From an uncultured Saprospiraceae bacterium (GTDB lineage Bacteria > Bacteroidota > Bacteroidia > Chitinophagales > Saprospiraceae), in assembly GCA_938015925.1 (NCBI GenBank), contig CALLVY010000588.1:9046-73045 (forward strand): DNA of 64,000 nucleotides, given 5' to 3'. How positions within the stretch are numbered: the stretch's first letter is position 1; each line of letters begins with the position of its first letter. Positions 37,365-55,617 of the stretch are shown piece after piece. The notes beneath the pieces were generated by a model that ran no database searches, had not been told where the DNA came from, and was given only the letters and a program-made list of their open reading frames with translations. The position numbers were made by a program, and so were the translations under genes.

Positions 37365-39122
37365 TTAATTCGTAAAATTATTCTCTATGCGTATTTGGCT
37401 ACTCTTTTTGTTCGCTGTTTGTTGAATCCCCATAAGTGTTCCATCAATTAAAAAATTAGAATGAATACTTACAGATCGAAGTGTTCCGATATTTCCGGTA
37501 AAAGCTTTTTTAGATTTAAAAGTATTACCTGAAATTAAAGAATTACTTAAACCCACTGATAGATTAATCAAATCATTGGGACTGGACAATTCATTATTAA
37601 TAATTTTCAAACCATTATTTTTTCCGGAGATCATGATCTTTCCAGCTTTGTTGTTGGAAATAGTATTTCCTGTTCCTTTTCCTAAATTTATAAAAGTAGG
37701 GATGGGAGTAATTTTATTAGGATCCTGAAAAGTATTTTGAGAAAAGATACAATGATTGGCAAGGTTCATTTGGATGGCATAATTTTTACAATTAGAATCT
37801 CCAAAAACACTATTGTCTGAAAAATTTAAATTTTCAATGGCATAGTTTCCTTTCCACAATAATACTGGTTGATCAAAACAAAAAAAGGAGGTTCTCAAAT
37901 CATCTCCCTGTTGAGAATTCTTTAAAATAAAAGAATTATTTTTTATGATCGTATTGGCATTTTTTCCTGCGGCTCCCTTGGATTCTTTTTTCCTGTCAAT
38001 GATTTCAATTTGAGGCCCGTTAACTCTGTAATAAGTATTGCCAATCACTTTTGTATTATTAGAATATTCAATCAAACATCCACGAGGTCTTTGTCCTTTT
38101 ATTTTTTGGTGAACATAGAAGATGGAATTATTGCTAAAGGTATTCCCATAAGAATAAACACCTCCCCCATCAGCAGCATCCGTATCTCTAACGATCATAC
38201 CATAGTGGACATCTTTTATGATATTCCCGGAGACAATACAAAACTGGGATCGGTTCAATATTGGCCCATTACACGCTGCATTATTTTCTCCATCAAAAAT
38301 ACAATCCGTAATAAAGCATTGGGTAGAAGATTCGATAACCGCCAACTGTCTTGCTTTTTCTCGTCCGGTGAAGGTGCAATTAACGAATCCACACCTTTCA
38401 TTCTTTCCATACATCGTGGCATTTCCATCTTTACAACCTCCAATTTTGCACAAAGATGCAATGCAGTTTTTATTGGTGTTTGTAAAATTCAGTCCGGTAT
38501 CTTTACAATCATACACGGTACATTCTTTTACCAAAGAATTGGCAGAGCTAATAAATTTAATGCCAGAACCCAGCCTTTCAATTTTAATATTATCTATGGT
38601 AATATTATCAGATTTATTTACCAAAACCCCCGCGACCAGCTCTGCCTTAGGGATTGATTTTTGAAGACTTTCAATTGAAATATTCGATATGTTTATGCTG
38701 TTAGAATTATTTATACTAAAAACACTTCCATAAAAATTAATCGCGGTATGCGCATCCACAATAATTTGGCTTCCTGCTTCTCCTGATATGGAAAAATTAT
38801 TTAGGTTATCAATTTTTATACACGCATTTACTTTTTTGTTTTTTCCATTTATTTTTAACTGGTAATTTGCAGAATAAATGGGTTTTAGCAAATAGGTGCC
38901 TTTTGGAAAAAACAAATTTTTATTGTTCTTTTTACAGAAAGATAAGGCACTTTCTATGGCTTTGGTGTCATCCGTTTTTCCATCGCCTTTCGCTCCAAAA
39001 TCTGTAACGGAGGTCACATAAGAAGAAGAATTTAATGGAGCCTTTCCCGCTGTTTTGCAATTGCAGGCACTCAACATTAAGAGGATCCAGGTAATGTTAT
39101 TTATAAAAAAAGTTAACTTCAA
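37365..39122 (-). CDS. Right-handed parallel beta-helix (pectate-lyase-superfamily) lipoprotein
   Basis: Lipobox-like 'ILLMLSAC'. 'VTDFGAKGDGKTDDTKAIESAL' is the N-terminal signature of the pectate_lyase_3/GH28-like family. Many Asn/Gly-rich ~22-aa turns ('NITIDNI', 'ISNNS', 'IKNNSF'). TTG start. Confidence 0.65.
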   Translation of the reverse strand: MKLTFFINNITWILLMLSACNCKTAGKAPLNSSSYVTSVTDFGAKGDGKTDDTKAIESALSFCKKNNKNLFFPKGTYLLKPIYSANYQLKINGKNKKVNACIKIDNLNNFSISGEAGSQIIVDAHTAINFYGSVFSINNSNSINISNISIESLQKSIPKAELVAGVLVNKSDNITIDNIKIERLGSGIKFISSANSLVKECTVYDCKDTGLNFTNTNKNCIASLCKIGGCKDGNATMYGKNERCGFVNCTFTGREKARQLAVIESSTQCFITDCIFDGENNAACNGPILNRSQFCIVSGNIIKDVHYGMIVRDTDAADGGGVYSYGNTFSNNSIFYVHQKIKGQRPRGCLIEYSNNTKVIGNTYYRVNGPQIEIIDRKKESKGAAGKNANTIIKNNSFILKNSQQGDDLRTSFFCFDQPVLLWKGNYAIENLNFSDNSVFGDSNCKNYAIQMNLANHCIFSQNTFQDPNKITPIPTFINLGKGTGNTISNNKAGKIMISGKNNGLKIINNELSSPNDLINLSVGLSNSLISGNTFKSKKAFTGNIGTLRSVSIHSNFLIDGTLMGIQQTANKKSSQIRIENNFTN

Positions 39123-39160: not shown

Positions 39161-39949
39161 CTAAAACCAGTTCTTATCTTTTTCGTATCCCGCAAGAATT
39201 AATTCATTTCCGCCAAGTTTGTTAAAGACTTCACAAGCTTCTTGATTGAAATTATTTTTCCAATCCCCTGCGATTCCTTTACGCAGAAAGCTTTTTTTAT
39301 TTTCTGTACCAGGCTCTCTTTTAGTTTGATTTTTGAAAGAGTATTTTTCTACAATCTTTCCAATTTGTTCCCGATCGTGATTGATGCCAAGGAAAGTCAT
39401 CGAAGCAGACAATTCTGCCTGAGCATCTTTTAATAAATTTTCGTAAGTAACCAGATATATATTCTCATTTTGAAGGTAGGAATTTACAAAATCACTCCAC
39501 GAAAAATGAAATCGTCCTGCAGCATAATCTGTGAACATATATTCAATAAACCGAGGCATATTAGATTGTATATCTTCATATTCTTCAAAGTGCAGGCGCG
39601 ACCTATGATATTGGATGCTGTAGGATGGATTTCTATCGTGCTCAAAAAGAAAATGATAATAAGCCGAAACCATTACATCTCGTCCATCCCGAAGAACCGC
39701 TAAGGTTTTTCCAAACGAAGGTTTATATAAAAAATGGCCATGTATAATGCATCTTTCAAAATTGGGACTGACATTTCTTGGAAAAGGAATGCTCGTCGCA
39801 TCGGAAAACATCTGACAAAACCAGGAGCCTCCTGATTTTGGAAACTCTGGCACTAAAACCAGATCGAGAGGCTTTCTAAGGTATTGCCTCATCAATAAGC
39901 GTTTCGCTGCAGCTAGCCTAACTTGGGTTTTGGAACGAGTATCTTTCAT
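39161..39949 (-). CDS. PAPS-dependent sulfotransferase (Sulfotransfer_1-like)
   Basis: 5'-PSB 'FPKSGGSWF', 3'-PB 'VLRDGRDVMVSAYY', and C-terminal 'RKGIAGDWKNNF'. Confidence 0.8.
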   Translation of the reverse strand: MKDTRSKTQVRLAAAKRLLMRQYLRKPLDLVLVPEFPKSGGSWFCQMFSDATSIPFPRNVSPNFERCIIHGHFLYKPSFGKTLAVLRDGRDVMVSAYYHFLFEHDRNPSYSIQYHRSRLHFEEYEDIQSNMPRFIEYMFTDYAAGRFHFSWSDFVNSYLQNENIYLVTYENLLKDAQAELSASMTFLGINHDREQIGKIVEKYSFKNQTKREPGTENKKSFLRKGIAGDWKNNFNQEACEVFNKLGGNELILAGYEKDKNWF

Positions 39950-40018: not shown

Positions 40019-40957
40019 TCAGAAAGCGTGTCGGATTTTTTTAAAGAAGAAAGTAATCGCTTTATAGAAAAAAAGTTGAACAGAATATTTACTTTCTCTT
40101 TGTTTGCAAATCAGGTAAGACTCCACCTTTCTTAATTTCATAAGCGTATTGTACTTCCCATCAAAGAAATCATTTACCGTATTATAGTAGTACAATCTAT
40201 TTTTATACCTGCGTTGAGGATTTCTTTTTTGGTTAGATACGCTACCAATATTCCTCCTATAGGTGGCAAAAAAATCGCTATGGAATTTTATTTTTGAATC
40301 TTTGGCAGCCAATACCACTACTGCCTGATCTCCAAATGGAATATCCGAAAACCATTCTGGTAAAGTAAAATTATTTCTAAATACAAAGGTGGAGGTGTGA
40401 GAAAAAAGTTGTCTTAAATAATCTCGAATAGAATAAGTATCGTTTTTTGCAGGGTCTACTATTTCTTTTTTCTCTGTCGTTTTTCCTGTTTTATCTTCTA
40501 AAACGGTTACTCTGCCCACCGATAGACCATAGTCTGGATGAGCTTCTAAAAAATCAACCTGCTTTTGTAATTTATCAGGATCCGTCCAAAAATCATCTCC
40601 TGGTAATAAAGCAATATATTTTCCCTTGGCCGCTTTAAAATTTTCAATAAAATTAAATCGACCGGTCGGATGATCATTGATATAAATCACATCCTCTCGT
40701 CTTCTCAAATGAAGGTTTATTTTTTCGGGAAACTTATCTGCATAATCAATACAAATCTGACGCGTATCATCTGTACTATTATCTTCCCCAATAATAATCT
40801 CTATTGGGAAATTCACTTTTTGTGCAAGAATGCTATCTAAGCAGGGACCTATAAATTTTCCATGATTATAAGTCGGTACGCAAATGGAGACGATAGGATT
40901 TGATGGCGTTGTTGGATTTCCGTAAAGTGGATTAAAGACACTCTCTTCTCTGTTCAT
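40019..40957 (-). CDS. Glycosyltransferase family 2
   Basis: 'VSICVPTYNHGKFIGPCLDSILAQ', 'GEDNSTDDT' and 'LLPGDDFW'. Confidence 0.75.
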   Translation of the reverse strand: MNREESVFNPLYGNPTTPSNPIVSICVPTYNHGKFIGPCLDSILAQKVNFPIEIIIGEDNSTDDTRQICIDYADKFPEKINLHLRRREDVIYINDHPTGRFNFIENFKAAKGKYIALLPGDDFWTDPDKLQKQVDFLEAHPDYGLSVGRVTVLEDKTGKTTEKKEIVDPAKNDTYSIRDYLRQLFSHTSTFVFRNNFTLPEWFSDIPFGDQAVVVLAAKDSKIKFHSDFFATYRRNIGSVSNQKRNPQRRYKNRLYYYNTVNDFFDGKYNTLMKLRKVESYLICKQRESKYSVQLFFYKAITFFFKKIRHAF

Positions 40958-40971
40958 TAACTAATTCATTT

Positions 40972-41805
40972 CTAGTTTTGAAAATTTTCATCTAAAAAGA
41001 CAGCCAAAGATGGTTCACTTAGACTTGCCTTGATTTCCTCTTCTATTTTTGGATGAAGTTTCCCCTTCCATTTCGTCACTACCGATTTATCTTTAAAAAC
41101 GGAGTAATCGCTGGTATCGTTTTTCTGATTAGAGGATAATAAAAATTGCTTCGTATTCTCGTCCATTTCAAGATTAGAAAACTTCAAAAGTTTGGAAACT
41201 TCTTCCAATGGATTCAATACCATTTTATCATAATGAGCGATGTAAACCTGATCCGGATACTGCTCGCTGAGACGGAGGTATTTTTTTGTCAGAAGAAGCC
41301 AATCTTTAAATCCCCAATATTCATGTCGGTTAATTTTCCTGCAATCCCCTGTATACCATTCTTCTAAAGGATCTGCATCTTTAGGAAACTCCTTGGCGGA
41401 TTTCAACCAGGAATAAATAGCGGCACATGGATTCCTGACGATATAAACTACTTTGGGTTTTGATGGAAGTTCCAATACTTTTTCCAGTACTTCATGGTAG
41501 CGAACATCTTTGATCACCAAGTGCTCAGGGATCCTTGCTTTGTCTTTAGTGAGTGGAAAGTCTCCTTTTTTTCTACGCTCCTCCTGAAGCAAAAATGCAT
41601 CTTTAGAATTATAAACATTTACAAAAAAATCCTGCCACTCCTCATTCGATGAATCCTCGTTCACTGCATTTTTAAACGCATAGGAGAAAAGAGGAGCCAT
41701 TCTGAATGTCGTGGTAGAAACACTATCGAATATTTGACTTACCCAACTCGTACCAGATCGAGGTAATCCACATAACCAAACAACATTGAAGGGTAAGCTT
41801 TCCAT
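40972..41805 (-). CDS. Sulfotransferase-family protein (P-loop-like PAPS site)
   Basis: 'CGLPRSGTSWVSQIF' (5'-PSB) and 'YIVRNPCAAIYSW' (3'-PB-like R...S). Confidence 0.65.
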   Translation of the reverse strand: MESLPFNVVWLCGLPRSGTSWVSQIFDSVSTTTFRMAPLFSYAFKNAVNEDSSNEEWQDFFVNVYNSKDAFLLQEERRKKGDFPLTKDKARIPEHLVIKDVRYHEVLEKVLELPSKPKVVYIVRNPCAAIYSWLKSAKEFPKDADPLEEWYTGDCRKINRHEYWGFKDWLLLTKKYLRLSEQYPDQVYIAHYDKMVLNPLEEVSKLLKFSNLEMDENTKQFLLSSNQKNDTSDYSVFKDKSVVTKWKGKLHPKIEEEIKASLSEPSLAVFLDENFQN

Positions 41806-41822: not shown

Positions 41823-42728
41823 TTAATTTAATAATCTAAGTGTTCCGGTAATAAAGACAGGCAAGTCAAACTGCTCGGTCAGAAGGTTTGCTTTCTGCTC
41901 AACTTCTTCTCCCGAGAGAGACTTAGGAAAAATATAGCCCACACAAGTTCCACTATGGGTATTCAAAAGGCCAATAGCTCCTGTATCCTTATAGGTCTTT
42001 AGTATTTTCGTTCGAAAAGGATCCTTAGCCCGGTTGTTGAAAATCTCAAAAGATTTAGTTGCACACTTGGCTATTCCAATATCATCTTTATTCTTGAAGC
42101 TTTCAATGAGGTCATGATAGAGGAGATCATATTCCTGAGAACACTGTGGGGTGAAGTTTAGATTATGATTAAAAGAAACGGTATCTACTACTCCACCCAA
42201 GTCTACTGCAACCACCCAATAAGATGGAATGTATTCCAAATCTTTAATCAAATGCCCTTTACGGTGATTATAGATGATACACGATTTATACATTAATCCA
42301 TCATGAGGTTCTATGGAAATAAAAACTTCAGAAATCGTTTTGTTGCGTAATAAAAAACCAAAAATTTCTTGTAATGCTCTAACCGTTGAAAGCATATCAG
42401 CAGTACTAGAACTCAAGCCTTTTCCCACAGGAATATTTCTGCTAAAAGATATCGTCAATTCTACATCTTGGGTGATTCCTAATTTTTCGAGCAGCCTTAA
42501 AGCGACATCCTTTGATTTATATAAATCACAGTTGATTACTAGTGGCCCTTTTCTCTTGACGCAAGTCAAATTGCAGATAGACCAAAGGTCTATAGGCAGG
42601 GTAACCAGAAAATCTTCTCCCGAAGATAATCGCCCTTGAACAATCTCTCCAAAGCTAGAATGAGATTTGCCATAACCTACAAAAATAGGGGTATTGTATA
42701 CGGTGGTTTGGTAGCTATTTCTAAACAT
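41823..42728 (-). CDS. GHMP-family kinase of the PduX (L-threonine kinase)-like branch
   Basis: 'SSFGEIVQGRL', 'NIPVGKGLSSSTADMLS' (GHMP motif II), 'ISIEPHDG' and 'LLNTHSGTCVGYIF' parallel the Salmonella PduX segments as I recall them. Confidence 0.65.
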   Translation of the reverse strand: MFRNSYQTTVYNTPIFVGYGKSHSSFGEIVQGRLSSGEDFLVTLPIDLWSICNLTCVKRKGPLVINCDLYKSKDVALRLLEKLGITQDVELTISFSRNIPVGKGLSSSTADMLSTVRALQEIFGFLLRNKTISEVFISIEPHDGLMYKSCIIYNHRKGHLIKDLEYIPSYWVVAVDLGGVVDTVSFNHNLNFTPQCSQEYDLLYHDLIESFKNKDDIGIAKCATKSFEIFNNRAKDPFRTKILKTYKDTGAIGLLNTHSGTCVGYIFPKSLSGEEVEQKANLLTEQFDLPVFITGTLRLLN

Positions 42729-43693
42729 TATTTCTTAATTAATTTCTGAAGCTTTTCCATATTTTTCCATCCTGAATCTCCCATGATTGCAACCACATCT
42801 CCTTCGATATTATGTCGTTTACAACACGCTAAAGCAGCATGAACAACTCCCCCACCCTGGAAACCTACGAAGATTCCCTGATCTGCCAATTGGATTGTTT
42901 TTTCTTCCGCTTCGTGTTGATGCACTTTCTCCGTATCATGATACAATCCAGTATCCATCATCTTCTGAATAAAGGGAGTGATATAATCTCCATCGTCAAA
43001 TCCTCCTGTTCCTGGAATCTTTGTGCCTGCGGCCGCTTGCGAAGTAAATATTTTTGTATTTGGACTTTGCTCTCTCAAAAAGGTAGAGGTACCCAACATA
43101 CTTCCTCCAGATCCCATTGATCCAATTACCGCAGCTACCTTTGGAAATGCCTTGAGAATTTCTGGTCCTAATGTTTCGTAAGAGGCTTTAGGGTTTGCCC
43201 AATTATGCAACTGGTCCAAAAAGCAATATTTCTCTTGCCCTTCTTTTGTTTTCATGATTTCCGCACAACGTCGGTTTCCCTCCACCGTAATATCTCCATG
43301 TACCGTACAGGTAGCACCAAAATATTCGATGAAATTTTTCTTGTCTTCCGTGAGCTTTGTATTACAAATCACTTCTACTTTGTACCCTAGCTGGCGGCCA
43401 TAGTACGCCAAGGCGCAAGCCATGTTTCCACTACTGGCATCCAAAATTGTTTTCCCTTTTACTAAGTCTCCATTTTCCTCTGCAGCTTTAATATTATACG
43501 TTGCTGCCCGATCCTTGATACTTCCAGAAGGATTTAATCCTTCGTGCTTTATATATAAATTTACATTTGGAAGTTCCTCCTGTTGGAAAAGGAAGTATGG
43601 GGTATTGCCTATAGAATCCATAATTGATTGATAGATTCGAGGCTTCTCATCGCTTTTGAAGTTTGAAGAGGGTTGTTTTGTTAAAAGATCCAT
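42728..43693 (-). CDS. Fold-type-II PLP enzyme (cysteine synthase / threonine synthase / SbnA-like, PALP family)
   Basis: 'NPSGSIKDRAA' (PLP lysine), 'DASSGNMACALA' (Asn loop) and 'SMGSGGSMLG' (phosphate loop). The stop overlaps the kinase start (TAATG). Confidence 0.75.
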   Translation of the reverse strand: MDLLTKQPSSNFKSDEKPRIYQSIMDSIGNTPYFLFQQEELPNVNLYIKHEGLNPSGSIKDRAATYNIKAAEENGDLVKGKTILDASSGNMACALAYYGRQLGYKVEVICNTKLTEDKKNFIEYFGATCTVHGDITVEGNRRCAEIMKTKEGQEKYCFLDQLHNWANPKASYETLGPEILKAFPKVAAVIGSMGSGGSMLGTSTFLREQSPNTKIFTSQAAAGTKIPGTGGFDDGDYITPFIQKMMDTGLYHDTEKVHQHEAEEKTIQLADQGIFVGFQGGGVVHAALACCKRHNIEGDVVAIMGDSGWKNMEKLQKLIKK

Positions 43694-44561
43694 GTTGATG
43701 AAGGTATTTGAAAAGATTCCATAATTCGTTCAAATTTTCTTCTATTTCTTCTATTTGAACTTGATTTTTACTTCTAAGTATATTTAAAAATTGGTGAAAA
43801 ATAGTAATCCCTTTTTCGTCCAGGATCTCTAAATTTAATTTTTCCCAATTCTCTCTAATTTCAGCTTTTTTCTTAACCGGAAACCAAAAATCATCTGACT
43901 GATCGGTTTCCTTAAACTTTTGTTCGGTCGCCACTTTCATAAATCCTTCCAGGCCATTGAACATTAAAGCTCTAAGTAAAATGGCTTCGTAATTATGCTC
44001 TGTAATTATTGCAATGGCATTTTGCTTAATAAGCGCAATGGCATTTTGCATGGAAGAAAAAGTTTTTTCTCCCATATAGTAAAAAACATTGATTGCTAAA
44101 AGGGCATCCAGTTGTTCTTTTTCAATAGGAATGTCATCAAGACTAGAATGAATCAGTAACACTTTTTCTTCTAGTTGATGTTTCTTTAAATATCCGGCCA
44201 GGGATTGCAAAGGAACATGATGGGCATCCAAGGCGATTACTTTTTGAAAACCCTGCTCTAATAAAAACTGGGTGAATCTACCGTCGCCACAACCTAAGTC
44301 TGCGACTACTGCATTTTGGGGATCGAGATGTTCAAGATAGGTACTAATGATTTCTTGATAAAAAGGCGTCTCCCAACCTGCCTGGTGTAGTTCAAATTGA
44401 CTTAATTCCCGAAGGTTCGCACCTTTAGGTTTGCTATCATGAAACTCAATTCCGGAATTCTTTTCTACCTTTCCCTGGTAGATTCCAAATTCATCTGGCT
44501 CTGATTGACTTAGTAAATCATTATTAAGAAGCTGGTGTTTCCAATTCAAGTCTTTCAGCAA
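43647..44561 (-). CDS. Class I SAM-dependent methyltransferase
   Basis: 'VVADLGCGDGRFTQFLLEQGF' (motif I) and 'DALLAINVFYYM'. TTG start that overlaps the ATP-grasp stop. Confidence 0.65.
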   Translation of the reverse strand: MLKDLNWKHQLLNNDLLSQSEPDEFGIYQGKVEKNSGIEFHDSKPKGANLRELSQFELHQAGWETPFYQEIISTYLEHLDPQNAVVADLGCGDGRFTQFLLEQGFQKVIALDAHHVPLQSLAGYLKKHQLEEKVLLIHSSLDDIPIEKEQLDALLAINVFYYMGEKTFSSMQNAIALIKQNAIAIITEHNYEAILLRALMFNGLEGFMKVATEQKFKETDQSDDFWFPVKKKAEIRENWEKLNLEILDEKGITIFHQFLNILRSKNQVQIEEIEENLNELWNLFKYLHQHGSFNKTTLFKLQKR

Positions 44562-45777
44562 AATTGTTCTTTTTTAATTTAATTAAAATATCGTCTTTTA
44601 AGTTCGTTCCTAGTAGTTCTTGCATTTCCTCAAAGCTATCATACTTAAGCAGTAACAAACCAAGTCGGCATCCAGAGTTGATAAACTTATTTACCGGGTC
44701 TCCTGGTTTAACCGATAATACGGACTGATAAATTATTTTTTCTTTGATTCTTTCTGAAATATCTAAACTTTCAAAAACGCCACTTTTATCAGAATGAATG
44801 ACATAATGAGAATAACATGCTCCTAAGCTTGTCCCTTCAACTGCTAAAATTGGATCGCCCATGCATTGCAAAATAGAAGAAGAAATCAGATCATAACCTG
44901 TATGATAATGAATAATATCATTGAGCATGTTTCCTCCATTGCGGGCCCCGATATCAATAACCATTGGGCGGCCATCTTCACATTCGATCACATCAACATT
45001 AAAGGTGCCCAATTTAATATCTACTTGAGCAAAGATTTTCTTTAAATCTTCTGATACCTCTTTGAAAAATTCTTTTGGCTTTGATGCTGGTAGAGAAATA
45101 GATCTTGGAACCAGACCATTAATCGAATCGTTAAAGTGAACATCTCCAAAACAATTGAAGACAATTTCTCCATCCTGAACCAATACATCTCCTGACATCA
45201 AAAATCCGTCTCTTTGAATGTGTTCTTCCAGAATAACTTTATCAATTCTGGAAAAAGAAACGCTATCCGTAAAATGCGCTTCCACCTGATCAATATCTTC
45301 TTTACCCAAAATGGTCACTCCTTTGCTACCGGAAGAATCAACAGGTTTTATAATGAATCGCTTTTGTTCTCTGTTCAGAATTTCAGCAATGTCAGCTCCA
45401 CTTTTCACTTCAAAAAAAAGTGGATAAGGTACTCCCGCATCTTTTTGAATTTGTCGAAAGGTTACTTTATCCGACAATAATTTAATGGCTTCAAAAGAAT
45501 TAGAAGGAATCCCCATTTTTTCTCCTACATAGGCTGCGGTAAGTGCTCCAGGATCGGAAGCATAAGAAGAGATACCGTCGATTTGTAGTTTTTGAGCGAG
45601 TTCGTAGATTTCCTCTAAAACGGTGGTGCTTACATTGTGGTACTCATCAGATATTTGATGACCCGGATTGTCCGGTTTATAATCTGCGGTAATCACATAG
45701 TAACCCAATTTTTTTGCTGCTTCGATGGCGGTCACCTGAATATCTGCACCACCAAGCATCAATAATTTTTTCTTCAT
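44524..45777 (-). CDS. ATP-grasp domain ligase
   Basis: 'KKLLMLGGADIQVTAIEAAKKLGYYVI', 'FIIKPVDSSGSKGVTIL', 'ILEEHIQ' and 'VIDIGARNGGN'. The ATG at 45777 is preferred over the listed TTG at 45825, which would overlap the DegT gene by 38 nt. Confidence 0.65.
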   Translation of the reverse strand: MKKKLLMLGGADIQVTAIEAAKKLGYYVITADYKPDNPGHQISDEYHNVSTTVLEEIYELAQKLQIDGISSYASDPGALTAAYVGEKMGIPSNSFEAIKLLSDKVTFRQIQKDAGVPYPLFFEVKSGADIAEILNREQKRFIIKPVDSSGSKGVTILGKEDIDQVEAHFTDSVSFSRIDKVILEEHIQRDGFLMSGDVLVQDGEIVFNCFGDVHFNDSINGLVPRSISLPASKPKEFFKEVSEDLKKIFAQVDIKLGTFNVDVIECEDGRPMVIDIGARNGGNMLNDIIHYHTGYDLISSSILQCMGDPILAVEGTSLGACYSHYVIHSDKSGVFESLDISERIKEKIIYQSVLSVKPGDPVNKFINSGCRLGLLLLKYDSFEEMQELLGTNLKDDILIKLKKNNFAERLELETPAS

Positions 45778-45787
45778 TATGGATCTA

Positions 45788-46909
45788 TTAAGTATTTTGT
45801 TTAATGATGCGACAGATAAGCTCAATATCCTCTAATTCCAACTTGTGATAAAGCGGCAAGCAAAGAACTGATTTGGACGTTTTATCCGCCACAGGAAGGT
45901 CATAATTTTTCTCTACATAAGGAAGTTTGGCCAAGGATGGATAGAAGTACCTCCTAGGTTTGATTCCCATTTCTCCGAGCTTTTCAATTACCTTAAAAAG
46001 TATATTTTCAGATTCGAAGACTACTGGGAAATAAGAAAAATTATAGTCTGTCTCATTCCTTATTTGCTGAAATTTCAGATTGCTATCCTGGAGTAATTCC
46101 AAGTAGGTCTGATATTGCTCTTTTCTTTTGGCTTTAATGTCATCGATGTATTTCAAATTGCAAAGTCCCATAGCCGCGTGGAATTCTGAGTTTTTTCCAT
46201 TCACTCCTAAATTTGCAAATCGTTCTGGTCCATCGTGTCCAAAATTTCTGAGATAAAGCATTTTGGCTTGAAGCTCTTTATTTGCGGTGACAACCGCTCC
46301 TCCTTCAACCGTGTGGAATAACTTTGTGGCGTGGAAACTAAGCGTACTTATATCGCCATATTCCAGAAGAGACATGCCTTTATAGTTGACGCCAAAACAA
46401 TGGGCAGCATCGTATATAACTTTTAAGCCATTTCGATTCGCGATATCCTGGATGGCTTCCACATCACAAGGATTTCCAAAAACATGTGTTGCTAAAATCG
46501 CCGTGGTATTTTTGGTGATGGCTTTTTCAATTAACTCTGGGTTTACATTAAATGTTCCGGGATCAATATCAACGAAAACGGGGGTGCAATTTTCCCAGAC
46601 CAGACTTGAGGTCGTCGCCACATAAGAAAAGGGGGTAGTAATTACTTCTCCTTTTAATTCCAGTGCTTTGATGGCTATCTGGATAGCTATTGTTCCATTG
46701 GTTAAAAAAAGAAGATTCTGGATATCCAGATGTTTTTCTAATTTTTTCTCTAAGTCTTTGACGTTGGGGCCATTATTTGTTAGCCAATTGCGATCCCAAA
46801 TTTTTGATAAATATTCGAGGTATTCTTCTTTAGGAGGAAGAAATGGTTTGGTGACGGGAATATTCTTTTTTAAAACTCCCGTATCTTTTTCAGTCGAAGG
46901 ATACAGCAT
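45788..46909 (-). CDS. DegT/DnrJ/EryC1-family nucleotide-sugar aminotransferase (PglE/PseC/WecE-like lysine context)
   Basis: 'IPVTKPFLP', 'GEVITTPFSYVATTSS', 'DAAHCFG' and 'STLSFHATKLFHTVEGGAV' (PLP lysine). Confidence 0.8.
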   Translation of the reverse strand: MLYPSTEKDTGVLKKNIPVTKPFLPPKEEYLEYLSKIWDRNWLTNNGPNVKDLEKKLEKHLDIQNLLFLTNGTIAIQIAIKALELKGEVITTPFSYVATTSSLVWENCTPVFVDIDPGTFNVNPELIEKAITKNTTAILATHVFGNPCDVEAIQDIANRNGLKVIYDAAHCFGVNYKGMSLLEYGDISTLSFHATKLFHTVEGGAVVTANKELQAKMLYLRNFGHDGPERFANLGVNGKNSEFHAAMGLCNLKYIDDIKAKRKEQYQTYLELLQDSNLKFQQIRNETDYNFSYFPVVFESENILFKVIEKLGEMGIKPRRYFYPSLAKLPYVEKNYDLPVADKTSKSVLCLPLYHKLELEDIELICRIIKQNT

Positions 46910-46923: not shown

Positions 46924-48399
46924 TTAATTAGAAAATTCTTCCATTTTGGGCTTCTTATCAAGCAACACTTTAACAAAATTCAATATTCTTAGGAGTTGCT
47001 CATTATTGAAAAAATAAGAGAAGCCAAAGAATAGAATTGTCCATACAGACCAATATAGAAACAGTGCTACGGAATGGGTAAAATCACTAATAAAATGACT
47101 AAAGGAAAATAGTAAAAATCCGATAATCAGAGCTATGATCAAGTTCTTAAACAAAGGAAAGTAATGTGGGAAAAAATTCAATTCAACAACCTTGTTTATT
47201 GCTCGTTGTCTAATAAAAAAGATAACAATCGAGTTTATCGTTATTCCCAGGGCTACCCCTTTTAATCCATAAAAATGTCCTAGCGTCAAAAAGAAGAAAA
47301 CTTTGAGTCCTTGCGCCAATAAACCATAATTAAAGATCATTTTACTTTTTCCAAGTGCTAAAATGATGCTATTGGAAATTGGCGAAAGACTAATCATTAA
47401 GCCTTGGATACAGAATATCTGGAACAAAGGAATCATGGGTAACCATTTTGTCCCAAAAAGTAATTTAACGATAAGGTCTGCAGAAAAAAACAATCCTAGC
47501 AAACCAGGAAAAATAAAAAAGGAAACCATCGCCATCGCCTCTATGTAAGTACTCTTTAATTTTTCGGTGTCCTCACTTATCTTGGAAAAAGAAGGAAATA
47601 AGACATTGAAGAAAGTTCCTGAAAAACTCGAAACTGGTTTTGTCATTAAGCGGCTGGCATTTTCGTAAAACCCGAGCGAAGCGACGCCTAAAAACTTTCC
47701 AATATAAATTCGATCAAATTTTGCAGCCAATTTATTTAATAAATTAAAGCCTAATACATTAATACTAAATCCATAAAGAGTACTCAAAGAAGCTTTGCTA
47801 AAGACAAAGGAGGGTCGCCATTTATTAGAAAACCATAATCCGATAGCCATGATGCTATAATTGATGATTTGTATGGCTACCAGACTCCAAACACCAAAAT
47901 CTCTATAGGCCAGCATCAGTCCCGTTCCCTGGGCACAAATTAAAGCTGAAATATTAATGATAGATAAAGCTTTAAAATTTAGCGATCTCTTAATTAATGT
48001 TCTTTGAACAACATTCAAAGAAGCTAATAAAAAAGAAAAGGCAAGAACTCTGGCTAATGGTGTAAGCTTTGGTTCCCCATAGAACATCGCAATCAAGGGT
48101 GCTAATAACAGACCTAAACAAAACAAGGCAATCCCAATAGCGATATTAGCCCAAAAGACCGTAGATAAATCTGTTTGACTAACCTCTTTCCGCTGAATCA
48201 ATGCATCTCCAAAACCACCATCAATGATAGCTTCCGAAAGGCCATAAAAAACAAGAATCATCCCCATCCAACCATAATCCTGAGGACTTAGTATCCTCAA
48301 TAGAAAAACGCTGAAAATCAAGGTCAAAAGTTGTATTCCAAAACGATCTAAACCTTGCCAAAAGAACCCTACTAAAACCTTCTTCTTTAATGAACTCAT
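46924..48399 (-). CDS. wzx: Wzx-type oligosaccharide flippase (MOP/PST family), copy 2
   Basis: 491 aa. 'GFFWQGLDRFGIQLLTLIFSVFLLRILSPQDYG', multi-pass membrane protein. Confidence 0.75.
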   Translation of the reverse strand: MSSLKKKVLVGFFWQGLDRFGIQLLTLIFSVFLLRILSPQDYGWMGMILVFYGLSEAIIDGGFGDALIQRKEVSQTDLSTVFWANIAIGIALFCLGLLLAPLIAMFYGEPKLTPLARVLAFSFLLASLNVVQRTLIKRSLNFKALSIINISALICAQGTGLMLAYRDFGVWSLVAIQIINYSIMAIGLWFSNKWRPSFVFSKASLSTLYGFSINVLGFNLLNKLAAKFDRIYIGKFLGVASLGFYENASRLMTKPVSSFSGTFFNVLFPSFSKISEDTEKLKSTYIEAMAMVSFFIFPGLLGLFFSADLIVKLLFGTKWLPMIPLFQIFCIQGLMISLSPISNSIILALGKSKMIFNYGLLAQGLKVFFFLTLGHFYGLKGVALGITINSIVIFFIRQRAINKVVELNFFPHYFPLFKNLIIALIIGFLLFSFSHFISDFTHSVALFLYWSVWTILFFGFSYFFNNEQLLRILNFVKVLLDKKPKMEEFSN

Positions 48400-48481: not shown

Positions 48482-49468
48482 TCAAAGTTTGACTTTAACT
48501 AAATCTTTAACCGTGAGTTTAAGTCCTTTCTTTAAATCTATTTGATTATCCCATCCCAATACTTCTTTCGCTTTACTGGTATCCGAAAAGTTTCTCATCA
48601 CATCTCCTACTCTTTTTGGACCATGAACCAATTTCACATCACTGGTACCAAAATCTTTCAAAACTTCCAATAACTCTTCTGTTACTTCCAATACAGTTGT
48701 CTCTCGATTGGTTGCTATTTGGAATATCTCCCCTCCTATTCCTTCTTTTGTTCCTGCTAACCAAATAGCATTTACTAAATCTCCGGTATAGATGAAATCT
48801 CTGGTTTGGGAGCCATCGCCATAAATTTCCAAGGTTTCTCCATTCATTGCCTGGCGAATAAACTTAGCAACTACACTACTCTTATGCGTAGATCCCGGGC
48901 CATAAACATTTCCAAACCTCAAGGCAATAGTATTCACTCCATAGGATCGAAAATAAGCGGAACAATAGGCCTCTCCGGCTAGCTTGCTTGCTCCATAAGG
49001 GGAAACCGGATGACAGGGCATCTCTTCGTGTATCGGTGGAATACATTCGCCGATAGGAGCGCCGCTAGAAGCAAAAACAAAACGGTCGACTTTATTTTTT
49101 CGACAACCTTCGAGGTAATTAAACGTTCCAACCACATTGGTCATACAATCCATTCTTGGGTTTTCTACAGAAGGACCTACTCCTGTATTGGCCGCTAAAT
49201 GGACAATCACATTTGCTCCGGATGTTACTTGCTTTGCCAGATCTGCATCCATAATATCCCCCTCTATCACTTGCACTTTATTGCTTGCCCAATCGGCATC
49301 CTCCATAGAAACCTGTTCAATGGCATCCGTAGCATAAAATAAATCTTCTTTCTTGCCAACGGAAAAATTATCAATGACTCTAATCGAAAGATTTTCTTCT
49401 TTCTGAAGAAGTTCTTTTATTAGGTTTTTTCCTAAAAATCCGCAGCCGCCTGTTATTAACCAATTCAT
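48482..49468 (-). CDS. SDR-family NAD-dependent nucleotide-sugar epimerase/dehydratase
   Basis: 'WLITGGCGFLGKNL' and 'SPYGASKLAGEAY' (Y-x3-K). The start shares nt 49468 with the sqdB stop. Confidence 0.7.
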   Translation of the reverse strand: MNWLITGGCGFLGKNLIKELLQKEENLSIRVIDNFSVGKKEDLFYATDAIEQVSMEDADWASNKVQVIEGDIMDADLAKQVTSGANVIVHLAANTGVGPSVENPRMDCMTNVVGTFNYLEGCRKNKVDRFVFASSGAPIGECIPPIHEEMPCHPVSPYGASKLAGEAYCSAYFRSYGVNTIALRFGNVYGPGSTHKSSVVAKFIRQAMNGETLEIYGDGSQTRDFIYTGDLVNAIWLAGTKEGIGGEIFQIATNRETTVLEVTEELLEVLKDFGTSDVKLVHGPKRVGDVMRNFSDTSKAKEVLGWDNQIDLKKGLKLTVKDLVKVKL

Positions 49469-50619
49469 TATTTACTCCATTTTACTCGTGGAAAAATTTT
49501 AGCTTCATCGATATTGTCTCGATATTTTAAAGCTAATTTCATCATATCTGCCAATACTTCGGGAGTCATAAAGTTCGGTTGCAATCCTAGCTCTAATAAT
49601 CCGGTGTTAGCAGGGTTGTAATAATGATCTTCTGGTTCTCTTCTTGGATTCGGAATAGATTTAATTTCTACGTCAATTCCAACTAGTTTACCCGCCTCCT
49701 GAACCTTATCGGCCAATTCGTTTACTGAGAAGGTCTCAGTCAATTGATTATAAATTTTTAGTTCGCGTTTCTCTGCTGGGTTATTTAAAGCAAGATCTAC
49801 ACATTGCAAAGTATCTTTCAAATTAAGGTAACCTCTAACCTGTCCACCTTTTCCATAAACCGTCAAAGGAACACCCGCTACAGCTTGCACTAAAAAGCGA
49901 TTGACAACGGTACCAAAAATATCATCGTAGTGGAAATTAGGCAATAGTCGTTCATCCAAATCAGATTCGGCAGTAGAAAGACCATAAACGGGACCTTGCA
50001 TAAGGTCAGTAACTTTAAGGTCGTAGGTTCTTACATAGAACCAAAGTAAATCCGTATCTAAAACTTTCGTGGTATGGTACAAACTTCCAGCTGCTCTAGG
50101 AAACAAAAATTTATCTTTACGACCTTTGTGTTCTATTTCTAACCAACCTTCTTCAATATCAATATTGGGACATCCATATTCTCCCATCGTCCCTAATTTC
50201 ACGATGTGGCACTCTGGTTTGTTTTTTAGAATTGCCCAAATTAAGTTATGAGTAACTTCCAGGTTATTTTTCAAGGTATAGTGGGCCTCTTCATATCCTT
50301 TAAGAGAATACGGTGCAGAAGGTTGTTCTGCATAATGAACCACTGCATCTGGCTGAAATTCTTTGATATGGTTTTCTAAAAAACGATAATCTTTCAAATC
50401 TCCAATTGCGACATTTATGGTCTTTCCCGTCAGTGATTTAAATAGCTTTGCTTTATCCTCCAGGTTAGGAGTAGGAATCAAAGCCTCAGAAGACGTTTGC
50501 ATCGCAATTGTTCTTCTAGAGTAGTTATCTATAGATAATACTTCATGACCTTTTGCGGCAAGGTCCATTGATGTAGGCCATCCAAGATAACCGTCACCGC
50601 CTAAAATGATTATACGCAT
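49468..50619 (-). CDS. sqdB: UDP-sulfoquinovose synthase (SQD1/SqdB family)
   Basis: Collinear with plant SQD1 as remembered: 'ILGGDGYLGWPT', 'KLGTMGEYGCPNIDIEEG', 'YHTTKV', 'PLTVYGKGGQVRGYL', 'FSVNELA' and 'PNPRREPEDHYYN'. Confidence 0.85.
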   Translation of the reverse strand: MRIIILGGDGYLGWPTSMDLAAKGHEVLSIDNYSRRTIAMQTSSEALIPTPNLEDKAKLFKSLTGKTINVAIGDLKDYRFLENHIKEFQPDAVVHYAEQPSAPYSLKGYEEAHYTLKNNLEVTHNLIWAILKNKPECHIVKLGTMGEYGCPNIDIEEGWLEIEHKGRKDKFLFPRAAGSLYHTTKVLDTDLLWFYVRTYDLKVTDLMQGPVYGLSTAESDLDERLLPNFHYDDIFGTVVNRFLVQAVAGVPLTVYGKGGQVRGYLNLKDTLQCVDLALNNPAEKRELKIYNQLTETFSVNELADKVQEAGKLVGIDVEIKSIPNPRREPEDHYYNPANTGLLELGLQPNFMTPEVLADMMKLALKYRDNIDEAKIFPRVKWSK

Positions 50620-51814: not shown

Positions 51815-52891
51815 TCAAACCATTGCATCTCGATAGATTTTTCTACCGATGATGATTATTATTGCGAGGAAACTTCCTAAAAAGGCTCCTAATATTATTG
51901 CTTTAATTTTAGATTCCCTGTTGGGTCTAAGAGGAGAAAAAGGTTCATCAATGACTTGGAAAAAGGGCATTGCAATTTTTAAATTAAAGGCTGCCATTTC
52001 CGTGTTTTTTACGATTTCCGCATAAGCGACACTAAGCATTTGTACATCTCTTTGCAATCGATCAATTTTCAATTGAGCAGATCTGGAAACCAATCCAATA
52101 TTGCTGTCAATAGCTTTTGCGAGTAAAGATTCCTTCCTCGCAAGTTCTTGACTTATAGAGTCTCTTTTTTCCTTTAATTTGTCAAAAGTAGCTTTGGGTT
52201 TATCTGTACTTTCTTTGATGTAAAACTGACTGACTTTTTCGTACAATTCTTTTAAAAAGAGAATAGATAATTCTTCCGATTGGCTTTCAACCTCCATCGT
52301 TAATATAGAAGTTTCCTTTTCGTAATACACAAGCATTAGTGGCTCTATATTTGGATTTCCTTTTACTTGGTTATAGACAATTTTCAATGCCCTTCTTTCT
52401 GTCTTACCAAATTTTTCTATTTCACTATTGGTAAAATAAAAGTCTTTTAACCCCGTCGTATCTTTTTTCCACTTTTCGTGAATTTGTTCTGCCTTTATAA
52501 TATGATTGGCAAAATAATCCAATTTATTTTTCACTACTGCTTTTTCAAATAGAGCCTCTTTGGTAATCCGCAAAGACTTCGATAGCTCTGCGATTTTATC
52601 AAGATTGAATTCTCCACCACCGCCGCCGCCAAGTCCAAACTGTCCTAAAATAGAACCCATGCCGCCGTTGCTACCGCCGCTTTCTTCATTGACCATAAAC
52701 GTCATGTCCGCTACATAAGTTACCGGAGTAGTAATAGCAGTGTATAAAAAATAAGAGCCTCCTAAAACGAGGAATACCGCTACAATTTTCCAGTTCCTAA
52801 GTACCTCTCGATAAAATTCCTGTACCTTAAGAATTAACTCCTTAAGTGTGATTTCGTCCTCTTTTACTGTTATTTGATTTCCTTCCTTCAT
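51815..52891 (-). CDS. wzz: Wzz/PCP-type chain-length determinant protein without a tyrosine-kinase domain
   Basis: N-terminal '[14 protein letters not shown]...[17 protein letters not shown]' (Wzz motif plus TM1), a coiled-coil middle, and a C-terminal TM '[19 protein letters not shown]'. No Walker motifs. Confidence 0.7.
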
Positions 52892-53748
52892 TCAACAATA
52901 CCTCTTAGATATTCTCCATATCCACTCTTAACCAAAGGTTTCGCAATTTCCAACAACTGCAATTTATCTATATACCCCATCCGATAAGCAATCTCCTCTA
53001 TACAACCGATTTTATAATCCTGTCGTTTCTCAATCACTCTGACAAATTCCGTCGCATCATGCAAAGAATCAAAGGTTCCAGTATCCAACCAAGCCGTTCC
53101 ACGATCCATAACCCCTACACTCAATTCCCCTTTCTCCAGGTACACTCGATTCACATCGGTGATCTCATATTCTCCCCGAGCAGAAGGAGCTATATTTTTT
53201 GCAATCTCTACGACCTGATTATCATAGTAGTACAATCCAGGCACTGCAAATTTTGATTTGGGTTCTGCTGGTTTTTCTTCGATGGAAATAACCTTGTTGT
53301 CCTCATCAAATTCCACTACGCCATATCGTTCCGGATCCGAAACGGGATAAGCAAAAACTTTTGCACCTTTTACGTCTACACTCGATTGCAATAATTTACT
53401 TAAACCTGAGCCATAAAAAATGTTGTCTCCCAAAACGAGTGCTACTTTATCATTTCCGATAAACTCCTCTCCTATTACAAAAGCCTGCGCTAATCCGTTG
53501 GGTACATGTTGAACTGCATAGTTAAAGCTACAGCCCAATTCTTTTCCATCTCCTAAGAGCCTTTGGAATTGAGGGCTATCTTCAGGTGTGGTGATGATTA
53601 AAATTTCTTTAATTCCCGAAAGCATCAAAATCGACAAGGGATAATAAATCATTGGCTTGTCGTAGATTGGCATTAGCTGTTTAGAAATAGCTTTGGTTAT
53701 AGGGTAAAGGCGAGTGCCGGATCCGCCGGCGAGGATAATTCCTTTCAT
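52888..53748 (-). CDS. rfbA: Glucose-1-phosphate thymidylyltransferase
   Basis: '[39 protein letters not shown]' and 'LGDNIFYG'. The stop overlaps the wzz start (ATGA). Confidence 0.95.
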
Positions 53749-55259: not shown

Positions 55260-55272
55260 TTTTTTTATTTTA

Positions 55273-55315
55273 ACGGTATGAGGTTTGCGGTGTGGGGTTT
55301 GCGGTTGACGAAATA
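55273..55315. repeat. Left arm of an imperfect inverted repeat filling the cysD-cysN spacer
   Basis: 'acggtatgaggtttgcggtgtggggtttgcggttgacgaaata'. It contains the 14-nt tandem duplication 'ggtttgcggtgtgg' / 'ggtttgcggttgac'. Confidence 0.6.
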
Positions 55316-55581: not shown

Positions 55582-55616
55582 TATTTCGTCCACCCAAACC
55601 GTAAACCATATACCCT
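55582..55616. repeat. Right (inverted) arm of the cysD-cysN spacer repeat
   Basis: The reverse complement 'agggtatatggtttacggtttgggtggacgaaata' aligns with the left arm, with an 8-nt indel and a few mismatches. It ends 1 nt before the cysD stop codon. Confidence 0.6.
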
Positions 55617-55617
55617 A

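Follow-up and report, generated by a model that had tools for sequence, protein, structure and literature searches.

The described system that comes closest to the gene cassette analyzed here is dabABC, the source of (2S,3R)-2,3-diaminobutyrate (Dab) in Burkholderia and in related operons, which consists of a PduX-like threonine kinase, a cysteine-synthase-like enzyme dependent on pyridoxal phosphate (PLP) and an ATP-grasp/lyase protein (PMC10906522, 2024). Genetic analysis of this pathway shows that the kinase supplies O-phospho-threonine, in which DabB replaces the phosphate with the amine of L-aspartate, and that such a kinase marks threonine-derived Dab pathways as opposed to serine-derived 2,3-diaminopropionate (Dap) pathways (PMC10906522). 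The cassette in question is a five-gene block at positions 41823-46909 of a 64,000-nt stretch of DNA (hereinafter, the window) from an uncultured Saprospiraceae bacterium (contig CALLVY010000588.1), and encodes a GHMP kinase, a fold-II PLP enzyme, a class-I S-adenosylmethionine (SAM) methyltransferase, an ATP-grasp ligase and a DegT-family sugar aminotransferase; the functional statements made below derive from homology and genomic context. The cassette shares with dabABC the juxtaposition of a threonine kinase with a cysteine-synthase-family PLP enzyme, an ATP-grasp domain in the same operon and, as far as can be predicted, the passage of a free non-proteinogenic amino acid to a ligating enzyme. 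In contrast to dabABC, it includes no argininosuccinate-lyase domain, its PLP enzyme is CysM-like rather than DabB/SbnA-like, its ATP-grasp protein is only 23% identical to the N-terminal domain of DabC, and its setting is a glycan locus with DegT, family 2 glycosyltransferase (GT2) and flippase genes rather than a nonribosomal peptide synthetase (NRPS) cluster.

Other known systems resemble single parts of the cassette. The same kinase family, with the same motifs, is found in cobalamin biosynthesis (PduX, acting with CobD), but the cassette kinase is partnered by a beta-replacement enzyme of fold II instead of a decarboxylase of fold I, and the kinases from the cobalamin context form a separate clade. 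The best sequence and structure matches of the PLP enzyme are to CysM of Mycobacterium tuberculosis and of Escherichia coli/Salmonella; it retains the catalytic lysine and the PLP loops of the M. tuberculosis enzyme, but the Asn-loop is altered, the Ser272 region is replaced and no CysO/MoeZ-type sulfur carrier is encoded nearby. The nearest characterized structural relatives of the ATP-grasp protein are the L-amino-acid ligases BacD/YwfE, RizA and BL00235 (16-19% identity), from which it differs in the proposed acceptor, a nucleotide amino sugar instead of a second amino acid, and in the presence of the motif (D/E)IGARNGGN in place of the ExNxR metal motif. The Cj1435-Cj1438 genes of the Campylobacter jejuni HS:2 capsule reportedly encode a PLP decarboxylase/aminotransferase, a phosphatase and an ATP-grasp amidoligase. 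Judged by description only, this system is similar to the cassette in its glycan setting, in the PLP-made, amino-acid-derived unit and in the amide bond formed by an ATP-grasp enzyme, but it uses fold-I (CobD/HisC-like) PLP enzymes and joins an amino-alcohol phosphate to the carboxylate of a uronic acid; a closer parallel to it is a Chitinophagales clade, discussed below, that combines a PduX-like kinase with a CobD-like enzyme and a HAD phosphatase.

In the predicted class of products, the 4-amine of a 6-deoxyhexose bears an amide-linked amino acid. This class is represented in O-antigens and capsules by residues such as Qui4N(D-AlaAc) and Qui4N(GlyAc), and bacterial glycans are known to contain N-(N-acetyl-aminoacyl) 4-amino-4,6-dideoxyglucose (PMC3210612). 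In the known residues of this type, the amino acids are ordinary ones and the ligases largely uncharacterized, whereas the cassette has a dedicated pair of kinase and PLP enzyme to make the amino acid. In O-antigens and capsules, the enzymes responsible for joining amino acids to amino sugars are for the most part unknown, even as these decorations shape antigenicity and phage/host recognition, and the cassette is a compact and widely distributed candidate for this chemistry. A search of the literature for this gene combination in glycans yielded no report, and the cassette is best described as known kinds of enzymes in a new combination, namely a threonine-kinase/PLP 'amino-acid generator' together with an amino-sugar N-acylation module.

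Conservation and organization of the cassette

The five-gene block is a conserved module and more than a chance neighborhood because it recurs in 13 other Bacteroidota loci, with 43-74% protein identity, while the flanking genes vary between the loci. Whether the five genes travel together outside the window had been raised as a question in an earlier inspection of the same DNA without database searches (hereinafter, the sequence-only reading), and they clearly do. The loci were collected by scanning one genome per species with the kinase alignment as the query, which yielded 53 loci, in which the cassette was mapped by tblastn with the window proteins; metagenome contigs were added to this set, and individual loci are designated below by L numbers. 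The cassette hosts, all of which are uncultured metagenome-assembled genomes (MAGs), belong to Saprospiraceae, Flavobacteriales, Vicingaceae, Chitinophagaceae and unclassified Bacteroidia.

The consensus gene order is DegT - ATP-grasp - (methyltransferase) - PLP enzyme - kinase - (sulfotransferase or methyltransferase) - GT2. In gene order 1 (the window, L011, L018 and L019), the methyltransferase gene is located between the ATP-grasp and PLP genes, and a sulfotransferase gene follows the kinase gene. In gene order 2 (L007, L012, L015-L017, L023 and L072), the methyltransferase gene comes after the kinase gene and there is no sulfotransferase, and in gene order 3 (L013/L014), a GNAT acetyltransferase gene precedes the ATP-grasp gene and a different methyltransferase gene follows the kinase gene. 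Flippase homologs (31-33% identity) are encoded upstream of DegT in L004/L011 and L008/L019, in L004/L011, L008/L019 and L018 the kinase is succeeded by a sulfotransferase homolog (45-50% identity), and a GT2 homolog (30-47% identity) is found after the cassette in most loci. The WbqC, ATP-grasp and methyltransferase activities are linked to a single pathway by natural fusions inside cassettes, namely a 664-aa fusion of WbqC with ATP-grasp (L072 8001-9995) and a 691-aa fusion of ATP-grasp with the methyltransferase (P0342, on the JGI 3300072015 contig). A similarity to systems of the WbqC family is also apparent in that WbqC-like domains are fused or adjacent to the ATP-grasp and DegT genes of the cassettes. 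The best explanation for the overall arrangement is a portable sugar-decoration module that comprises the five genes, the downstream sulfotransferase and GT2 genes and the upstream flippase gene.

In the window, the five minus-strand open reading frames (ORFs) delineated by the sequence-only reading were all recovered at the same coordinates, and its domain assignments are borne out by Pfam and NCBIfam searches. The DesI-like DegT-family PLP sugar aminotransferase (373 aa; 45788..46909; Pfam DegT_DnrJ_EryC1, 1e-90) is followed by the ATP-grasp ligase (44524..45777; weak matches to Pfam ATPgrasp_ST, ATP-grasp_3 and LAL_C2), the class-I SAM methyltransferase (304 aa; 43647..44561; Pfam Methyltransf_25, _11 and _31), the fold-II PLP enzyme (321 aa; 42728..43693; Pfam PALP, 7e-50) and the GHMP kinase of the PduX/DabA family (301 aa; 41823..42728; Pfam GHMP_kinases_N, 2.9e-10, N-terminal domain only). 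The flanking genes are also as anticipated: a Wzx-type flippase is encoded directly upstream of the cassette (46924..48399; Pfam Polysacc_synt and Polysacc_synt_3) and a sulfotransferase of the type that uses 3'-phosphoadenosine-5'-phosphosulfate (PAPS) downstream of it (40972..41805; Pfam Sulfotransfer_1 and _3, PRSGTS motif). The GT2 gene (40019..40957; Pfam Glycos_transf_2) closes the cassette, and these three genes are on the minus strand as well.

The genes are tightly packed. The stop codon of the PLP gene and the start codon of the kinase gene overlap by 1 base (TAATG, read at 42730..42726 of the minus strand). The ATP-grasp ORF (433 aa) reaches a TTG at 45825, but the homologs and the public gene call begin at the ATG at 45777 (MKKKLLMLGG; 417 aa), and with this start the reported 10-nt gap after the DegT stop codon holds. 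The 38-nt overlap of the methyltransferase and ATP-grasp genes (44524-44561) is real, given that the conserved N-terminal NWK of the methyltransferase is located upstream of the ATP-grasp stop codon. The 47-nt overlap of the PLP and methyltransferase genes is likely but not certain: it stands if the ATG at 43693 is used, but the homologs begin about 18 residues later, where the window contains no start codon.

The kinase

Several lines of evidence support the assignment of the window kinase to the PduX/DabA L-threonine-kinase branch of the GHMP kinases and not to the sugar-kinase branch. Annotated kinases that could serve as anchors for the comparison were obtained from a plasmid search. The closest annotated relative (31% identity, 8e-38) is the kinase that heads an operon on a Sinorhizobium meliloti plasmid with the dabABC architecture, that is, kinase, cysteine-synthase-family protein and an 899-aa 'lyase family' protein; the sequence-only reading, which named no characterized glycan pathway with this gene set, had overlooked dabABC (PMC10906522). 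A kinase of Peptoclostridium (29% identity, 5e-22) is encoded between cobyrinate a,c-diamide synthase and precorrin genes, in the vicinity of threonine-phosphate decarboxylase and CbiB. The window, dab and cobalamin kinases align end to end and have four motifs in common, GE(I/L)xQG, GKG(L/M)xSSTAD, IEPxD and HSG(T/S), with IEPHD of the window aligned to IEPSD of the dab-like operon and IEPTD of the cobalamin operon. The motifs quoted in the sequence-only reading are all present, and the PduX motifs that it cited are nearly letter-perfect in the cobalamin-operon homolog (SCGELLQG, GKGMASSTAD, SIEPTDS and AHSGS). Among 15 kinase homologs, SFGEIVQG, PVGKGLSSSTAD and THSGTC are invariant, and the JGI labels on the homologs read 'L-threonine kinase' or PduX-type. 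The window kinase scores no more than 29 bits with the mevalonate, homoserine and galactose kinase models of NCBIfam.

In a simple neighbor-joining tree of 60 kinases, constructed without support values and with E. coli ThrB and GalK as the outgroups, the PduX-like kinases are all monophyletic and far from both outgroups, in agreement with the branch assignment made by the sequence-only reading. The sub-clades follow the partner enzyme. They comprise kinases associated with cobalamin genes, with a DabB-like PLP enzyme and a DabC-like lyase, with a CobD/HisC-like enzyme and a HAD phosphatase (in Chitinophagales glycan loci), with a ThrC/cysteate-synthase-like PLP enzyme and NeuB, with an SbnA-like PLP enzyme or no partner (in sulfur-oxidizing Gammaproteobacteria) and, finally, with the CysM-like PLP clade that includes the window. 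No cobalamin genes are present in the window, as the sequence-only reading had noted, and tblastn searches with CbiB, CobD, CobU and CobS matched only the separate cobalamin clade of loci. The product of the kinase is predicted to be O-phospho-L-threonine or possibly O-phospho-L-serine, and allo-threonine is a further conceivable substrate.

The kinase family is small, with 1,575 members at E <= 1e-3 and 234 at E <= 1e-30 among 1.84 billion representatives; when grouped at 50% identity (E <= 1e-10), it comprises about 1,200 clusters. Five or more different PLP partners are associated with it across glycan, nonulosonic-acid and NRPS pathways. PduX-like threonine kinases are known from cobalamin and Dab biosynthesis, and the present data are evidence that they provide a general entry point to unusual amino acids.

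Several other kinase neighborhoods are of interest in their own right. On the Bacillus thuringiensis toxin plasmid pBtoxis (NC_010076.1; L067, 6947-11144 of the locus), a kinase gene is found together with genes for an AlaX-like editing protein, a cysteine-synthase-family protein, a MalY-PatB C-S lyase and an EamA exporter, a further uncharacterized combination of a PduX-like kinase with PLP enzymes. A separate clade of PduX-like kinases is accompanied by a threonine-synthase/cysteate-synthase-like PLP enzyme beside NeuB (L040, L042, L044 and L046-L049; e.g., L042 9992-12098), in nonulosonic-acid loci of Syntrophaceae, Hyphomicrobiales, Nitrospirales and others, and represents a second uncharacterized pair of a kinase and a fold-II PLP enzyme. 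In large sulfur bacteria (Candidatus Albibeggiatoa, L064 5529-10924; also L024, L027 and L029), the kinase is encoded beside an NMT1-type ABC transporter and is accompanied by a PLP enzyme of the SbnA-like type as well as an adenylating enzyme and a carrier protein, and many related gammaproteobacterial kinases, including that of the cultured Leucothrix pacifica (L031), lack a PLP partner in their vicinity. Finally, Chitinophagales glycan loci (L043 4996-13873; also L045 and L041) encode a DegT protein that is 62% identical to that of the window, a WbqC-like protein, a GNAT protein, a MaoC dehydratase, a GT2 and a PduX-like kinase, with genes for a CobD/HisC-like enzyme and a HAD phosphatase on the other strand. 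The gene set suggests a route through threonine-phosphate decarboxylase (aminopropanol phosphate), with a logic similar to that of Campylobacter Cj1435-1438. The amino-alcohol-phosphate option that the sequence-only reading had considered for the window was rejected, as it belongs to this different kinase clade.

The fold-II PLP enzyme

The partner of the kinase is predicted to be a beta-replacement enzyme of the CysK superfamily that acts on an O-phospho-amino acid and not an ordinary cysteine synthase, which makes it a candidate for a new O-phospho-amino-acid-dependent branch of the cysteine-synthase superfamily. The PLP-binding core typical of fold II is kept: the Schiff-base lysine in SIKDRA and the GSGGS loop that binds the PLP phosphate are invariant, and the Asn-loop retains its position. 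The scores are below all NCBIfam cut-offs, namely 193 bits for cysKM (cut-off 344), 177 and 173 for the two CysM models (413 and 394), 158 for CysK (351), 141 for SbnA (350) and 116 for CapA, the capnine cysteate-synthase model (600), and the CBS model is not reached either. The conserved core agrees with the fold-II assignment of the sequence-only reading, and the scores speak against an ordinary O-acetylserine sulfhydrylase. Compared to CysK/CysM, the substrate loops are altered, with SSGNMAC for TSGNTG, Q(G/A/T)GG for SSG(G/A) and NTKLT for (N/T)MS. The family also contains a specific segment, GTKIPGTGxFxDGDYxTPFI, and two invariant lysines, K113 and K225, which may bind the phosphate of the O-phospho-amino acid.

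The family profile scores 189 bits against the enterobacterial (E. coli) CysM and 176 bits against the O-phosphoserine-dependent CysM of M. tuberculosis, with which the window enzyme also shares the C-terminal DxGWK motif. The AlphaFold2 (AF2) model (pLDDT 87.6) matches CysM structures with TM-scores of 0.8-0.89 in Foldseek searches, whereas SbnA structures rank 41-44. Identity to the DabB-like protein is 27% and confined to the N-terminal half. In a neighbor-joining tree of the PLP partners, also without support values, the enzyme falls into a clade of its own, apart from both E. coli CysK/CysM and the DabB-like/SbnA-like group.

The kinase-PLP pair outside the cassette

In the loci that carry the pair, the PLP gene always adjoins or overlaps the kinase gene, and the pair is found beyond the cassette. 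PLP enzymes of the same clade (49-62% identity) are encoded together with the kinase in nonulosonic-acid loci of alpha- and other proteobacteria that contain NeuB, CMP-transferase and PseB/PseC-like genes. Here the neighbors are an acyl-CoA-ligase-like adenylating enzyme that lacks the NRPS motifs FDxS and NxYGPTE, an 80-96-aa carrier protein with the phosphopantetheine motif GWDS(L/M/F)GW and an AAC(3)-like N-acyltransferase, along with a different methyltransferase and a Cj1295-like protein. In the cultured bacterium Chryseobacterium gallinarum (L070; CP050995.1, approximately 1,985,524-2,006,426), a PLP enzyme of the same clade (62% identity) and the kinase are encoded inside an NRPS cluster, together with a 2,4-diaminobutyrate transaminase, a TonB-type outer-membrane protein and a type II thioesterase; in this host the chemistry of the pair is directly testable.

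Given that three unrelated systems for carboxylate activation, the ATP-grasp ligase, the adenylating enzyme with its carrier and the NRPS, are interchangeable beside the pair, the simplest interpretation is that the pair delivers a free amino acid, the carboxylate of which is then activated and passed to an amine. Most likely, this free non-proteinogenic amino acid is made by beta-replacement on O-phospho-threonine or O-phospho-serine. A DabB/SbnA-type adduct that requires trimming is not indicated because no DabC lyase domain and no SbnB-like partner is encoded in the window or beside any cassette or pair.

Two further interpretations of the neighbors were considered and rejected. The small proteins beside the kinase in other contexts are not CysO-like sulfur carriers, in view of their phosphopantetheine-type DS(L/M) motif and of the adjacent AMP-binding enzyme. 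The Chryseobacterium NRPS does not qualify as a monobactam (Dap/Dab) cluster under the SulTE Gln-Cys-Asn criterion, its thioesterase having an ordinary GYSFG (GxSxG) site, and provides no inference of a diamino acid; the two readable NRPS codes (approximately DALQLGNVIK and DILSLGMIWK) are Leu-like and Gly-like, and are uninformative on the side chain of the product of the pair.

The ligase, the aminotransferase and the acceptor

The ATP-grasp enzyme is predicted to form an amide between the new amino acid and the 4-amine of a sugar. The AF2 model (pLDDT 90.4) retrieves in Foldseek an uncharacterized Anaerococcus protein (4dim) as the top match, followed by the L-amino-acid ligases 3vot (BL00235), BacD/YwfE and RizA, ahead of biotin carboxylases and PurK/PurT, and sequence searches match 3vot (3.4e-10) and 4wd3 (6.7e-8). 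The Pfam LAL_C2 domain scores 24.8 bits, below the cut-off of 29.4, and many of the homologs carry a LAL_C2 match. The conserved motifs are K144, KPxDSSGSKG, EE(F/Y)I and (D/E)IGARNGGN. For the DegT protein, the best NCBIfam model is DesI (254 bits, with a cut-off of 650) and the best sequence match in the PDB is DesI as well (2po3, 2.9e-52), and the SFHATK lysine motif is present; it is accordingly predicted to make a nucleoside diphosphate (NDP)-4-amino-4,6-dideoxyhexose.

In all cassette loci for which the sequence extends far enough, a DegT gene (52-63% identical to that of the window) precedes the ATP-grasp gene at a distance of no more than 3 kb, and in none of the other fetched loci is a homolog of the TviB-like dehydrogenase of the window encoded up to 10 kb from the cassette. 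Together with the DesI match, the RmlA and RmlB-like enzymes encoded in the window and the relationship of the ATP-grasp protein to L-amino-acid ligases, these patterns favor an amino sugar as the acceptor and disfavor the uronic-acid acceptor that the sequence-only reading had allowed as an option.

The methyltransferase represents a cassette-specific family of 300-aa proteins, with 39% full-length identity between gene orders 1 and 2. A comparison of the family profile with the PDB, intended to reveal a possible PRMT-like N-methyltransferase, was uninformative, with matches to 2avn and to only the Rossmann part of CARM1, and allows no inference on the substrate. That it targets the amino-acid moiety is a guess. 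The GNAT protein of L013/L014 is of the type that acetylates alpha-amines, in keeping with a free alpha-amine on an aminoacyl group, which would be capped by acetyl in these loci and perhaps methylated in the window.

Proposed pathway and alternative explanations

The general logic of the sequence-only reading, in which the kinase activates a hydroxy-amino acid, the PLP enzyme exchanges the phosphate and the ligase attaches the product, is the best reading of the synteny, the fusions, the phylogenies and the parallel contexts. Starting from the observed family assignments, gene order, co-conservation, fusions and swap of the ligation machinery, we infer the substrates, the order of the steps and the acceptor as follows. 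The PduX/DabA-type kinase would phosphorylate the side-chain hydroxyl of free L-threonine (L-serine being less likely). The CysM-like PLP enzyme would then eliminate the phosphate, to yield a PLP-bound aminocrotonate or aminoacrylate, and add a nucleophile at C-beta, with a beta-substituted amino acid as the outcome; candidate nucleophiles are ammonia or an amine, which would give 2,3-diaminobutyrate or 2,3-diaminopropionate, or a sulfur species such as sulfide, thiosulfate or sulfite. In parallel, the DesI-like DegT enzyme would convert an NDP-4-keto-6-deoxyhexose, provided by RmlA and the RmlB-like dehydratase, to NDP-4-amino-4,6-dideoxyhexose. The ATP-grasp enzyme would activate the carboxylate of the amino acid as an acyl phosphate and transfer it to the sugar 4-amine, and the methyltransferase would act on the acyl group, probably on the free amine, a GNAT acetyltransferase being present in the sister loci. 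The GT2 would place the sugar in a repeat unit, which in this variant would be modified by the sulfotransferase, and Wzx would flip the unit. We consider the chances about even that the cassette indeed makes an unusual amino acid from O-phospho-threonine or O-phospho-serine and ligates it to the DegT-made amino sugar. With somewhat less confidence, we propose that the cassette represents an uncharacterized class of glycan decoration, in which a threonine-derived beta-substituted amino acid is made on site by a new O-phospho-amino-acid-dependent clade of the cysteine-synthase superfamily and N-acylated by the L-amino-acid-ligase-like enzyme onto a 4-amino-4,6-dideoxyhexose, and the kinase and PLP enzyme are a portable generator that also feeds nonulosonic-acid N-acylation and NRPS. 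The product could, for example, be an N-methylated and possibly N-/O-sulfated 2,3-diaminobutyrate or a beta-methyl sulfur amino acid.

The identity of the nucleophile is where the alternatives diverge first. A Dab-type route, in which the amine of aspartate or glutamate, or ammonia, is added to O-phospho-threonine and the acyl group is 2,3-diaminobutyrate, possibly N-methylated and N-sulfated, would be one specific outcome of the pathway outlined above. DabAB is the only characterized precedent for a PduX-like kinase combined with a CysK-like PLP enzyme, and the pair feeds the Chryseobacterium NRPS, a setting where diamino acids are typical, and the cluster also encodes the 2,4-diaminobutyrate transaminase; nevertheless, the missing argininosuccinate-lyase and SbnB-like genes, the limited similarity of the PLP enzyme to DabB and its branching apart from the DabB/SbnA clades, and the ordinary, not monobactam-forming, thioesterase of Chryseobacterium make this route rather unlikely. 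Addition of sulfite to O-phospho-serine or O-phospho-threonine, which would yield cysteate or 3-methylcysteate for subsequent methylation and ligation, was put forward in the sequence-only reading on account of the sulfur genes in the wider locus, where CysD, CysN, the SqdB-like enzyme and two sulfotransferases are indeed encoded. The PLP enzyme is also closer to the sulfur-using CysM enzymes than to SbnA or DabB, and a sulfotransferase follows the kinase in one of the cassette variants. However, in none of the other loci does the 10-kb vicinity of the cassette include a CysD, CysN or SqdB homolog, so these genes are features of the window locus and not of the module. The second gene-order variant and the NeuB and NRPS contexts lack sulfur genes, the CapA score is far below its cut-off, and sulfotransferases use PAPS, not sulfite. 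The sulfite version thus appears improbable; with a CysM-like enzyme, a sulfur nucleophile is possible, but nothing singles out sulfite.

The direction of the ligation can be questioned as well. The ATP-grasp enzyme might activate the carboxylate of a uronic acid, of the N-acetylglucosaminuronate (GlcNAcA) type and made by the 57257-60208 genes, and amidate it with the amine of the new amino acid. ATP-grasp amidoligases that act on glucuronate are known from the work on Cj1438, the TviB-like dehydrogenase, GFO/IDH oxidoreductase and hexapeptide acetyltransferase genes are all present in the window, and one cassette contig contains a fragment of a UDP-sugar dehydrogenase gene upstream. Against this orientation, which we regard as unlikely, stand the constant presence of DegT and the lack of TviB homologs in the fetched loci, the machinery of the NeuB context (adenylating enzyme, carrier and N-acyltransferase), which activates the carboxylate of the amino acid itself, and the activation of amino-acid carboxylates by the nearest structural relatives of the ATP-grasp protein. 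Still less credible, to the point of being highly improbable, is the explanation that a housekeeping cysteine synthase happens to share a sulfur-rich glycan locus with an unrelated kinase for sugars or small molecules: the public annotation of the PLP homologs is 'cysteine synthase' and the kinase matches only the generic GHMP N-terminal domain of Pfam, but the pair is co-inherited, as overlapping or abutting genes, over three phyla and three ligation contexts, the PLP enzyme has altered substrate loops and reaches none of the curated cut-offs for cysteine synthases, and the kinase groups with threonine kinases.

Several observations weigh against the pathway that we prefer, in which a threonine-derived amino acid is attached to an amino sugar. 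The ATP-grasp enzyme could make a dipeptide or could use the amine of the amino acid to amidate a carboxylate, and its family, with more than 2,694 matches, is far larger than that of the kinase, so that donor and acceptor could vary among the members. Arg220 of M. tuberculosis CysM, which is involved in O-phosphoserine use, aligns to an invariant glycine in the PLP family, so that recognition of the phosphate would depend on the putative role of the family-specific lysines. Furthermore, the phospho-donor amino acid is not fixed by the data, as shown by two loci: the cassette of JGI 3300072015 includes the PLP enzyme without a GHMP kinase and has a gene for a 157-aa protein in its place, and in a Pyrinomonadaceae MAG (L071 3982-6269), the gene after that of a same-clade PLP enzyme (54% identity, with 103 members in its 90% cluster) encodes an apgM-like 'proposed homoserine kinase', which may be a non-homologous replacement of the GHMP kinase.

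The wider locus

The cassette is embedded in a Bacteroidota surface-polysaccharide locus, as indicated by the G+C content of about 37%, the UpxY antiterminator and a Saprospiraceae MAG as the nearest relative. Two of the minus-strand genes of the wider locus would supply the sugar precursor, RmlA glucose-1-phosphate thymidylyltransferase (52888..53748; NCBIfam rmlA 478 bits, cut-off 361), the likely source of dTDP-glucose, and an RmlB-like candidate 4,6-dehydratase of the short-chain dehydrogenase/reductase (SDR) superfamily (48482..49468; best NCBIfam match to dTDP-glucose 4,6-dehydratase, 192 bits with a cut-off of 365). The locus also encodes a PseB/FnlA-like dehydratase, a Wza-like exporter, an MBOAT protein and a carbamoyltransferase, in addition to the TviB-like dehydrogenase, GFO/IDH oxidoreductase and hexapeptide acetyltransferase.

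The sulfur genes listed in the sequence-only reading, cysD, cysN and an sqdB-like gene, are all part of the same gene string. The SqdB-like UDP-sulfoquinovose synthase (49468-50619; 453 bits, cut-off 575), CysD and CysN (53994-56520) and two sulfotransferases (39161-39949 and 40972-41805) are encoded in a single UpxY-controlled locus, which suggests a sulfoquinovose-containing or heavily sulfated Bacteroidota glycan.

A second glycan cluster is located on the opposite strand (3444-8608, plus strand) and encodes a DegT paralog that is 29% identical to the cassette DegT as well as its own Wzx flippase (33% identity). Finally, a protein of 585 aa that combines a right-handed beta-helix (pectate-lyase-like) with a lipoprotein-like N-terminus is encoded inside the biosynthetic locus (37365-39122) and could be a glycan-modifying or glycan-depolymerizing enzyme.

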